Part shown: positions 27,259 to 29,528 of the stretch, piece by piece | Layout of the letters: the number at the start of each line of letters is the position of its first letter | Numbering within the stretch: the stretch's first letter is position 1 | NCBI RefSeq assembly: GCF_988243305.1 | Contig: NZ_OZ547136.1 | Reading direction: 5' to 3' (one strand) | Length of the DNA: 64,000 nt | Notes under the pieces: generated by a model | Databases searched by the model: none | The model's input: the letters and a program-made list of their open reading frames with translations, nothing else | Told to the model about the DNA's origin: nothing | Translations under genes and position numbers: made by a program

Positions 27259-29528
27259 GTGTGCCCGGAGTTCAGGGCGGGCATGGATGCTTAAATGAAC
27301 CGCGAGTCTGTCTGGAATATTGAACCGGTAACTCACGATGAGAAACCCAACAATCCCACCGGGTGTGACGGTGGAGAACCTGAGCGGCAGTGACCTGCGG
27401 CATGCCCGCAGGGTGATGTAACCCGCTGACAACGGGGATTGAGGCGAGATCACTAAGCCGAGATGATCCTCAAGGTTAAGTACTGAAAGGCTGAAGAACA
27501 TGAACCCGTTAATCCGCCTCTGTGGGTTGAAAACGTCACCACGGCCTACGTGATCTGACAGGCCGTGCAGGAGGAACTGGCAGTGATACGTAAGCACTGC
27601 CGGTCGAAGGTGTTTTGACATGTATGCGAAACACCGGGGCAGCAGCGTCTATCACGCTTGCGTTGCTGACTTCTGCCAACTTGCGGCAAGCAAGGATAAA
27701 GAGTGCGACGGGCAGCCTCCTCAGTATGCCTGAGTCCAGGCAGGTAAACCGGGGAAGGTCAGCGACGGATGTTAAGGGGGCATGGCTCCGATGACGCGCT
27801 GGCTGGCGGAGCTTCCGTAGTAGTCCGCGATGGGGAAAGCCCATTACATGGCGAAGGGAAGCAGTTTGAATGTGTTTGCGACGTGAATTAACTGACCTAA
27901 CGAGGTGAAGACCTTTGATAATCAGCGAAATGCAACGCAAGCTTGCCACATGGGCAGTCACCGATCCGTCCCTACGGATTCAACGGCTGCTGCGTCTGAT
28001 AACACAACCAGAATGGCTGGCTGAAGCGGCGCAGATCACGCTTTCATCAAAGGGGGCCCATACCCCCGGCGTTGATGGCGTGAACAAAACAATGCTACAG
28101 GCCAGACTAGCTGTTGAGCTGCAAATCCTCAGGGATGAATTACTCTCAGGCCACTACCAGCCCTTGCCCGCCAGACGGGTTTACATCCCTAAAAGCAACG
28201 GCAAACTGCGACCACTGGGTATCCCCGCGTTGCGGGATCGTATTGTTCAGCGGGCCATGCTGATGGCGATGGAGCCGATATGGGAGAGTGATTTTCATAC
28301 GCTCTCATATGGCTTCCGGCCTGAGCGCAGTGTCCACCACGCTATCCGCACGGTGAAATTACAGCTCACAGACTGTGGTGAAACCCGGGGACGCTGGGTG
28401 ATTGAAGGCGACCTGTCCAGTTACTTCGACACCGTACATCATCGACTGCTGATGAAGGCTGTACGCCGCAGGATCAGTGACGCACGTTTCATGACTCTGC
28501 TGTGGAAAACCATCAAGGCGGGACATATCGATGTCGGTCTCTTTCGGGCGGCCAGTGAAGGTGTGCCACAGGGCGGTGTTATATCGCCGCTATTATCGAA
28601 CATCATGCTGAATGAGTTCGATCAATACCTGCATGAGCGCTACCTGAGCGGGAAAGCCAGAAAAGATCGGTGGTACTGGAATAACAGTATCCAACGGGGC
28701 CGAAGTACGGCGGTCAGAGAAAACTGGCAGTGGAAACCCGCGGTGGCGTACTGCCGCTATGCCGATGATTTTGTCCTCATCGTCAAAGGCACCAAAGCAC
28801 AGGCGGAAGCCATCAGGGAGGAGTGTCGGGGTGTGCTCGAAGGCAGTCTGAAACTCAGGCTGAACATGGATAAGACTAAAATCACCCATGTTAATGACGG
28901 CTTTATCTTTCTGGGGCACAGGATCATTCGCAAACGCAGTCGTTATGGCGAGATGCGAGTGGTCTCAACGATCCCGCAGGAGAAAGCCAGAAACTTCGCC
29001 GCATCGCTGACAGCACTGTTATCAGGCAACTACAGTGAAAGCAAAGTCGATATGGCTGAACAACTCAACCGAAAACTGAAAGGCTGGGCCATGTTCTATC
29101 AGTTCGTTGATTTTAAGGCCAAAGTCTTCAGTTATATCGACCGTGTCGTGTTCTGGAAGCTGGCTCACTGGCTGGCCCGCAAATACCGTACAGGTATCGC
29201 TTCCCTGATGAGGTGGTGGTGTAAATCACCGAAACCGGGTCAGAGCAAAACGTGGGTTTTATTTGGTAAAACCAATCACGGCAAGCTCAGCGGCGAAATA
29301 CTGTACCGGTTGGTGGGGCAAGGCAAGAAGCTGTTCCGCTGGCGGCTACCCGAAGGTAATCCCTATCTGAGGACGGAGACCAGAAACACGTATACATCGC
29401 GCTTTACAGAAGTGGCAATGGCGTTCGCCAGCATTTAAATGGAGAGCCGGATGCGCTGAAAGGTGCACGTCCGGTTCGGGGAGGAGAGGCAGGGAAATAG
29501 TCCGACTACGCCCTGCCTCTTACTCTAC
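27259..29528 (+). mobile_element. Bacterial group II intron (about 2.27 kb) with intron-encoded reverse transcriptase/maturase
   Basis: 5' end GTGTG, 3' end ...CTAC; domain V-like hairpin GAGCCGGATGCGCTGAAAGGTGCACGTCCGGTTC at ~29447-29480; IEP ORF in domain IV; exons rejoin in frame. Confidence 0.8.
27915..29438 (+). CDS. Group II intron-encoded protein (reverse transcriptase + maturase)
   Basis: RT motifs RPLGIPALRDRIVQ, YGFRPERS, FDTVHH, PQGGVISPLLSNIML, YCRYADDFVLIV; start codon uncertain (TTG at 27915 or ATG at 27930). Confidence 0.85.
   Translation: MIISEMQRKLATWAVTDPSLRIQRLLRLITQPEWLAEAAQITLSSKGAHTPGVDGVNKTMLQARLAVELQILRDELLSGHYQPLPARRVYIPKSNGKLRPLGIPALRDRIVQRAMLMAMEPIWESDFHTLSYGFRPERSVHHAIRTVKLQLTDCGETRGRWVIEGDLSSYFDTVHHRLLMKAVRRRISDARFMTLLWKTIKAGHIDVGLFRAASEGVPQGGVISPLLSNIMLNEFDQYLHERYLSGKARKDRWYWNNSIQRGRSTAVRENWQWKPAVAYCRYADDFVLIVKGTKAQAEAIREECRGVLEGSLKLRLNMDKTKITHVNDGFIFLGHRIIRKRSRYGEMRVVSTIPQEKARNFAASLTALLSGNYSESKVDMAEQLNRKLKGWAMFYQFVDFKAKVFSYIDRVVFWKLAHWLARKYRTGIASLMRWWCKSPKPGQSKTWVLFGKTNHGKLSGEILYRLVGQGKKLFRWRLPEGNPYLRTETRNTYTSRFTEVAMAFASI

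Follow-up and report, generated by a model that had tools for sequence, protein, structure and literature searches.

The group II intron E.c.I4 is listed as a member of bacterial class A (Table S2 of PMC3522654), and its copies occupy specific positions in the transposase genes of the insertion sequences (IS) IS629, IS911, ISEc16 and ISEc31; in Escherichia coli E24377A and 55989, nearly all E.c.I4 sites are filled (PMC3522654). Class A was described in 2013 with only three nearly identical members, and Toro & Martinez-Abarca (2013) include in it the open reading frames (ORFs) of E.c.I4 and S.f.I1, in which the DNA-binding/endonuclease (D/En) region is not recognisable (PMC3552965). Here we analyse a 64,000-nt stretch of contig NZ_OZ547136.1 from the RefSeq assembly GCF_988243305.1 (the whole stretch is hereafter called the window), in which orfB of an IS3-family element is split by an insertion at positions 27259-29528. 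A preliminary description of the window, produced from the letters alone, interpreted this insertion as a group II intron that had retrohomed into the transposase gene of an IS911-like element. We are confident that it is a full-length, apparently functional copy of the class A intron E.c.I4, inserted in the sense orientation between the GDVTY and IWTG codons of orfB.

The window copy shows no essential difference from the published copies of E.c.I4, which is called S.f.I1 in Shigella flexneri: the same 2270-nt element is inserted at an identical point of a comparable host gene, that of an IS911-type IS3 transposase, the particular feature here being the location within an ISEc52-type hybrid IS beside cobU. 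The paper credited for E.c.I4 is reportedly that of Dai & Zimmerly 2002 (RNA 8:1294). E. coli K-12 carries E.c.I4 at the same GDVTY/IWTG site in the IS911A of the CP4-6 prophage, with 98.7% identity over 2192 nt. The K-12 copy (positions 3621-5384 of locus L015) is truncated at approximately intron position 1764 by IS5, with an IS30 in the same IS, whereas the window copy is complete; the K-12 pseudogene ykfC corresponds to the intron-encoded protein (IEP) of this truncated copy. Two introns of other classes are useful for comparison. Ll.LtrB from Lactococcus lactis (class ML, IIA) likewise consists of six RNA domains with a reverse transcriptase-maturase encoded in domain IV, and is likewise carried in a gene of another mobile element, but its protein, LtrA, which works by target-primed reverse transcription, includes both a DNA-binding and an H-N-H endonuclease domain, whereas no D/En region can be recognised in the protein of E.c.I4. 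RmInt1 from Sinorhizobium meliloti (class D) resembles E.c.I4 in being endonuclease-less (En-minus) and site-specific within an IS transposase gene, and replication-fork mobility is presumed for both; RmInt1 is the studied En-minus intron that homes into ISRm2011-2.

The boundaries of the intron are fixed independently because intron-free alleles align exactly. A search of 5426 complete E. coli genomes, to which all genome counts given below refer, identified two strains, OW1E2 and AST81, in which all 1481 nt of the joined flanks are matched at 99.9% identity with the intron absent. The match takes in unique DNA on both sides of the IS and thus represents the same cobU-adjacent locus; in both strains, an IS30 is present in orfA in place of the intron. 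In the intron-free alleles, exon 1 and exon 2 abut directly, with zero bases lost or duplicated. The 5' junction, on the plus strand, reads GTGACCTATA/GTGTGCCCGG (with a longer upstream context, GGTGATGTGACCTATA/GTGTGCCCGG) and falls between positions 27258 and 27259; the 3' junction, on the same strand, reads CTTACTCTAC/TCTGGACGGG and falls between 29528 and 29529. No target-site duplication is present at these junctions, and the 2270-nt RNA starts with GUGUG and ends with CUAC, in agreement with the group II consensus (5' GUGYG, 3' AY). The split of an IS3-family orfB at GDVTY/IWTG by an insertion of about 2.27 kb, with GTGTG at the start and CTAC at the end, as given in the preliminary description, is therefore confirmed base for base. 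The further claims that the exons rejoin in frame and that the two halves of orfB form one gene hold as well: in the absence of splicing, the orfB frame meets a stop codon 22 codons inside the intron, removal of the 2270 nt leaves a single open frame up to the orfB stop at 29986, and OW1E2 has the continuous IS without the intron at the same locus.

Because the same IS with an exact empty site is found in OW1E2 and AST81, the IS must have stood at this locus intron-free in some lineage. Intact, uninterrupted copies of the IS located elsewhere are approximately 97% identical to it, for example that of E. coli ATCC 8739, for which the annotation gives an IS3 transposase and a programmed frameshift. 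A 200-nt probe of the joined exons is uninterrupted in 2829 genomes, often with 100% identity, and the occupied exon-intron junction is present in 1262 genomes. Within the window, the intron and the host IS each occur only once.

The identification of the intron as E.c.I4 follows from its match in E. coli E24377A (NC_009801, 3341659-3343928, minus strand; approximately 99.7% identity across the exon-intron junction) because this match coincides, to within one base at one end, with the copy listed as "E.c.I4-8" (NC_009801, 3341658-3343928, minus strand) in Table S3 of Leclercq & Cordaux 2012 (PMC3522654); the class A assignment is taken from the literature. Copies in many genomes match the intron with essentially 100% identity. 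In 1873 genomes, at least 80% of its length is present, on chromosomes as well as on plasmids, and plasmids from Klebsiella, Salmonella, Enterobacter, Citrobacter and Yersinia carry E.c.I4 too. Thus, the window element is E.c.I4 at its usual homing site. The finding is already known, since the element, its class, the absence of the endonuclease, the targeting of IS911 and IS629 and the abundance in E. coli have all been published and annotated, the IEP being annotated as ltrA in RefSeq. Literature searches for experimental work on E.c.I4, S.f.I1 or ykfC found none.

The RNA has the hallmarks of a group II intron at its 3' end. A search of the entire window against Rfam at curated thresholds yielded a match to RF00029 (group II domains V/VI) at 29442-29528, with a score of 64.9 bits (gathering score 40) and E=1.7e-10 for the whole 64-kb window. 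The 3' edge of domain V lies 51 nt short of the intron end, so that the domain V-like hairpin noted at about 50 nt from the 3' end is genuine, and domains V and VI, the absence of which would have spoken against a group II intron, are both present. In domain VI, A29522, the 7th nucleotide from the 3' end, is bulged in both the Rfam alignment and the minimum-free-energy fold and is the putative branch point. In a fold with the ORF deleted, intron positions 606-615 pair with 2173-2182, forming a domain IV stem that brackets the ORF; the small hairpin that contains the Shine-Dalgarno sequence ahead of the ORF is kept in all relatives, including the one from Brucella. In an Rfam search of the intron at a permissive E-value, the D1-D4 families had no match; apart from domains V/VI, the matches were confined to two plastid D5 models and, by chance, to CRISPR-DR8 (E=0.92). 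The fold of domains I-III therefore rests on our own alignment of six relatives, for which the consensus of the 5' 650 nt includes 171 pairs, 25 of them with compensatory changes. One helix proposed by RNAalifold (intron positions 264-271/284-291) conflicts with two better-supported helices and was left unused.

The ORF in domain IV is intact, as the preliminary description had maintained, and encodes a reverse transcriptase-maturase with a YADD motif (in the context CRYADDFVLIV). The protein scores 340.8 bits against the NCBI equivalog TIGR04416 (group II reverse transcriptase/maturase; cut-off 300 bits), and Pfam domains RVT_1 (residues 91-337) and GIIM (residues 361-426) are detected, with nothing else, so that the tail (residues 427-507) has no domain match. 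The length previously given as 507 aa depends on the start codon, namely 507 aa from the TTG at 27915 or 502 aa from the ATG at 27930; the ATG is the start chosen by RefSeq/PGAP for the E. coli IEP (WP_001189123.1, annotated as ltrA), and the TTG is the annotated start of ltrA in the Brucella and Rhizobium relatives. The nearest solved structure is that of LtrA (5g2x, E=6.7e-53). Judging from these profile matches, the IEP is a protein with no recognisable D/En (H-N-H) region.

The host IS is delimited by its uninterrupted copies, which align with the joined sequence from query position 122 to 1343-1347, corresponding to window positions 26521 to approximately 30012-30016; the IS starts with TGAATCG and ends with CACTTCA. 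It has the characteristic features of the IS3 family, that is, an A7G frameshift motif, a DDE transposase and TGAA...TTCA ends, and the frameshifted and spliced OrfAB is a 377-aa protein, open throughout, that scores 387.8 bits against the IS3 transposase model NF033516 (cut-off 160 bits) and spans positions 1-368 of the 369 in that model. The earlier designation of the host as an IS911-like element applies to one part of it. Homology to the K-12 IS911A starts only at 26831, just past the frameshift site, and from there on the identity is 98.7%, so that orfB alone is IS911-like; BLAST against K-12 IS911A gave no match upstream of 26831, so that orfA and the left end are unrelated to IS911A at the DNA level, and identity to IS911 does not extend over the whole length of the element. 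In RefSeq, close copies of this IS are named as the ISEc52 family. A search that allowed up to 6 mismatches detected no left inverted repeat matching the right one, and the two ends (26521-26547 and 29990-30016) have only TGAA and a few inner bases in common. Because the ends differ and the IS911 homology begins right after the frameshift site, the host IS appears to have arisen naturally as a hybrid between two members of the IS3 family, and it is nevertheless present at several loci. The orfA/orfB frameshift region is occupied by IS30 in two elements, the ISEc52-type IS of OW1E2 (positions 3433-4660 of locus L002) and the K-12 IS911A (positions 1965-3193 of locus L015), and looks like a recurrent IS30 target.

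Table 1. Features of the intron and its host insertion sequence, in window coordinates
Feature	Coordinates	Strand	Basis
Full-length group II intron E.c.I4 of bacterial class A	27259..29528	+ (sense to orfB)	boundaries by empty-site alignment
Host IS, IS3 family, ISEc52-type, 1226 bp without the intron	26521..30016	+	uninterrupted copies
orfA	26584..26871	+	ORF list
A7G slippery site, -1 programmed frameshift from orfA to orfB	26823..26830	+	read from the sequence
orfB exon 1, ends with GDVTY (codons around the first catalytic Asp)	26829..27258	+	
orfB exon 2, IWTGKRW..., with the second Asp and the Glu of DDE, to the stop	29529..29986	+	
Right inverted repeat, IS911-type, GGCCAGTTTTTGTTGACCACTTCA	29993..30016	+	
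Loop AGAUCAC, 5' half of the domain I kissing-loop pairing (alpha-alpha' or beta-beta' type)	27447..27453	+	covariation
Loop GUGAUCU, 3' half of the kissing-loop pairing	27550..27556	+	covariation
Alternative EBS1, model A (UGUGGGU), facing exon -7..-1	27521..27527	+	pairing
Probable EBS2, ACGUC (intron 275-279)	27533..27537	+	pairing and covariation with target
Candidate delta (A27588) and EBS1 model B (CGUAAG, 27589-27594), 9-nt terminal loop of a covarying hairpin	27588..27594	+	
Domain IV (approximate), IEP ORF in the loop	27864..29440	+	ORF-deleted fold
Hairpin AGGU-GAAG-ACCU with Shine-Dalgarno sequence, TTG start directly after (DIVa-like)	27903..27917	+	conserved
IEP, reverse transcriptase and maturase without endonuclease domain	27915..29438	+	ORF list, TIGR04416, Pfam
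Domain V (GAGCCGGAUGCGCUGAAAGGUGCACGUCCGGUUC; GAGCCGG...CCGGUUC), 34-nt hairpin with AGC triad and 2-nt bulge	29444..29477	+	Rfam
Domain VI	29480..29526	+	Rfam alignment and minimum-free-energy fold

Mobility of E.c.I4 is suggested by the diversity of its targets. The same intron, with 1-9 differences per 2270 nt and with the ORF intact each time, occupies five or more distinct IS3-family targets whose 200-nt flanks share only 53-66% identity with those in the window; such near identity of introns in dissimilar transposase genes supports the earlier suggestion of a recently active element. All insertions are homologous, being located after the Tyr codon of the W-x-x-D-(I/V/F)-T-Y motif and before a T. 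Distant relatives, with IEPs 66-68% identical to that of E.c.I4, occupy the same codon position in other IS3 transposases; full-length examples are found on Brucella anthropi pOANT01 (positions 1801-4050 of locus L013) and Rhizobium ruizarguesonis pRlX4 (about 250-2520 of locus L017), and the IEPs of these two alphaproteobacterial introns are 66-67% identical to that of E.c.I4 and retain the TTG-initiated MIISEMQ N-terminus. The intron targets the conserved codons for D-x-T-Y around the first catalytic Asp, and a single intron can for this reason colonise many members of the IS3 family. Three alleles of the cobU locus are found: one has the intron but not IS30, one has IS30 but not the intron, and one has the two together. 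In a separate case, from E. coli Br_178_kylling (positions 2708-4977 of locus L007), the 5' exon of E.c.I4 (...VTDITY) comes from a different IS3-family element and the 3' exon matches the IS911-type exon of the window at 97% identity; the simplest explanation for this chimera is that two intron copies underwent homologous recombination.

Comparison of the relatives also points to the tertiary and target contacts of domain I. The loops AGAUCAC and GUGAUCU form a 7-bp pairing that is a typical domain I kissing interaction; in the Brucella relative, the respective loops are AAGCCGU and ACGGCUU, with 5 of the 7 pairs changed on both sides, all cells of the comparison are paired, and the observed score was reached by 0 of 500 shuffles. 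The exon-binding site 2 (EBS2) is most likely the ACGUC segment at 27533-27537, which pairs 5/5 with GAUGU at exon positions -13 to -9; three lineages show coordinated changes (C-G, U-A and G.U) between its loop position 276 and position -10 of the target. An earlier candidate, the 8-nt loop UGAUGUAA (intron 156-163), forms 4-5 of 5 pairs with several targets and was dropped in favor of 275-279 because its single change in Brucella is uncompensated while 275-279 covaries.

For EBS1, there are two models. Model B places EBS1 next to the candidate delta, within a terminal loop whose hairpin covaries; the delta A and the exon +1 U are invariant at every site examined, and the model B nucleotide facing exon position -1 covaries across lineages (C-G, G-C and U-A). 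This model provides 6/6 pairs with the IS629-type exon vs 4/6 with the CCUAUA of the window, where A.C mismatches occur at -1 and -5. Model A is the sole 6-mer or 7-mer in the first 700 nt that fully pairs with the ACCUAUA exon; of five E.c.I4 target variants, four give 7/7 pairs with it and one gives 6/7 when G.U wobble is allowed. The pairing does not hold in the alphaproteobacterial relatives, and the model A segment overlaps with a local helix. The IS911-type target is GATGTGACCTATA/T, and the IS629-type target is GATTTTACTTACG/T. Given that class A is listed as having an IIA-type RNA (PMC4424553), delta is expected to be adjacent to the EBS1 loop, and the invariant A directly 5' of model B fits this expectation. 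On architecture, model B is somewhat favored over model A, and with two models at hand, efficient splicing from IS911-type exons is not to be assumed. The Yersinia/Klebsiella variant of the intron, sought for extra EBS1 targets, is essentially absent at >95% identity from the E. coli genomes, and in a plasmid search for the same variant, the best 40 records were all Yersinia pestis plasmids, with no further target variant. The segment 27545-27552 holds CCUACGUG, which resembles an exon-intron junction (IS629-type CUUACG/GUG), and RNAalifold pairs it with the G/U-rich 27522-27529. Another interpretation, which we consider rather improbable, is that the G/U-only UGUGGGU (27521-27527), 5 nt upstream of EBS2, wobble-pairs with every IS3-family ACYUAYR variant and constitutes a non-canonical class A mode of 5' exon recognition, with the delta-EBS1 loop (27588-27594) secondary or vestigial in the enterobacterial lineage.

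In the life cycle that we propose for E.c.I4 at this locus, the IS transcript would serve as the pre-mRNA; the IEP would be translated from the precursor and bind the intron, and IEP-assisted lariat splicing via A29522 would re-create the mRNA of the 377-aa OrfAB transposase, while the IS remains disrupted at the DNA level. The lariat-IEP ribonucleoprotein would then reverse-splice into the sense strand of intron-less IS3-type sites, recognised by pairing of the EBS with the intron-binding sites (IBS) and by the delta pairing, and the complementary DNA would be primed by the nascent strand at the replication fork. Fork priming is proposed because the IEP has no endonuclease domain; such priming has been stated for En-minus introns (PMC4424553). 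Several considerations weigh against parts of this scheme. Splicing and mobility of the window copy are assumed from established group II intron biology, and fork priming would be by analogy with other En-minus introns, not with class A. The favored EBS1 model forms 4/6 predicted pairs at this site, and the alternative one, which pairs 7/7 here, is not conserved in the alphaproteobacterial relatives. Furthermore, gene conversion with a different intron-bearing IS copy as the donor, rather than retrohoming at this locus, could have introduced the intron, and the occurrence of intron-only, IS30-only and double alleles at the same IS implies a history with recombination or repeated events.

The last point leads to the alternative scenarios for the origin of the split gene. 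Retrohoming into a resident IS might not have occurred here at all if the IS transposed with the intron aboard, or if recombination or gene conversion took place with an intron-bearing IS911-type copy. We regard this as a possible but not the probable course of events. The intron and the IS together provide more than 3 kb of homology (PMC3522654), recombination between intron copies does occur, as the exons from different IS at L007 demonstrate, and every combination of intron and IS30 exists at the host IS; however, at this very locus OW1E2 and AST81 have the same IS with a precisely empty site, and an original retrohoming event into an IS911-type site would be required anyway, so that this scenario alters the history of the locus and not the nature of the element. 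Recombination via the intron could, in principle, also have joined orfB halves from two IS copies, in which case the exons would not make up a real gene. The L007 chimera is a known case of this kind, but for the window the idea is refuted, its likelihood being negligible, by the match of both flanks to a continuous IS in OW1E2 (99.9%) and ATCC 8739 (97%) and by the full-length IS3 transposase (1-368 of the 369-position model) that the spliced OrfAB represents. An origin of the reverse transcriptase from a retron or a defence-associated reverse transcriptase system, rather than an intron, is refuted with equal force and is exceedingly improbable: the matches to such systems are weak and sub-threshold (18-54 bits), far below the respective cut-offs of 200-600 bits, whereas TIGR04416 is matched above its own cut-off, the IEP contains the GIIM maturase domain, and the flanking ribozyme includes domains V and VI.

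A different question is whether the copy, although structurally intact, is functionally stranded. If the cognate 5' exon is the IS629-type CUUACG, the IS911-type CCUAUA would mispair with EBS1 at -1 and -5, the intron would splice poorly, and the IS would be permanently knocked out instead of carrying a silent passenger. The architecture of model B (a terminal loop, an adjacent delta A and covariation at -1 over five lineages), its 6/6 Watson-Crick pairing with the IS629-type site compared with 4/6 here and the adjacent delta-EBS1 loop predicted for a class A RNA of the IIA type (PMC4424553) all fit this possibility. We nevertheless consider it unlikely, given that EBS2 pairs 5/5 at the window site, better than at the IS629-type site, that the alternative EBS1 model A pairs 7/7 here, and that some mismatch is tolerated in IEP-assisted splicing; furthermore, the occupied junction in 1262 genomes and the filling of nearly all sites in E24377A and 55989 (PMC3522654) argue for efficient use of this target. 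A full-length, apparently functional E.c.I4 thus remains our preferred interpretation of the insertion.

The intron-bearing IS is located at the left edge of a CP4-44-like island (Ag43, YeeS/T/U and CbtA) beside cobUST, and the locus, with the intron in place, is common to at least 28 complete genomes, the nearest being that of JE86-ST02. The JE86-ST02 locus is otherwise 99.9% identical, and the main difference is that it does not contain the IS1 copy found in the window at 25293-26060 (768 bp, with InsA/InsB encoded on the minus strand and a 9-bp duplication of the target), which precedes the intron-bearing IS by approximately 460 bp. A full-length match to RF00124 ('IS102 RNA'; 253.5 bits), which we take to be the IsrC-type small RNA of CP4-44, is present at 38612-38815, in a stretch (38511-38769) that is unaligned to the otherwise collinear JE86-ST02 genome and is located just upstream of the Ag43 gene of that strain. 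Three tRNA genes with identical Rfam scores, annotated as tRNA-Asn in a related genome, are found at 16368-16440 (minus strand), 18189-18261 (plus strand) and 20597-20669 (plus strand). Because the first 16.3 kb of the window (1-16364), beyond the first tRNA-Asn, do not align with JE86-ST02, the comparison suggests that a different island is integrated at this tRNA gene.

Against the background of the published record, the additions made here are minor, namely the ambiguity of EBS1 and the covariation support for EBS2 and for the kissing loop. Of some interest to specialists is which part of the RNA acts as EBS1 in class A introns and, hence, how well the intron splices from IS911-type exons. 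Should the wobble recognition outlined above turn out to be true, one intron could parasitise many IS3 transposases and act as a brake on IS3-family transposition genome-wide. For the host genome, a copy of E.c.I4 flags the IS in which it resides as disrupted at the DNA level, and the intron together with the IS amounts to more than 3 kb of repeated DNA that can promote recombination, as in the chimera at L007. More generally, E.c.I4 provides an example of an endonuclease-less retroelement that spreads via the conserved catalytic-Asp codons of IS3 transposases.

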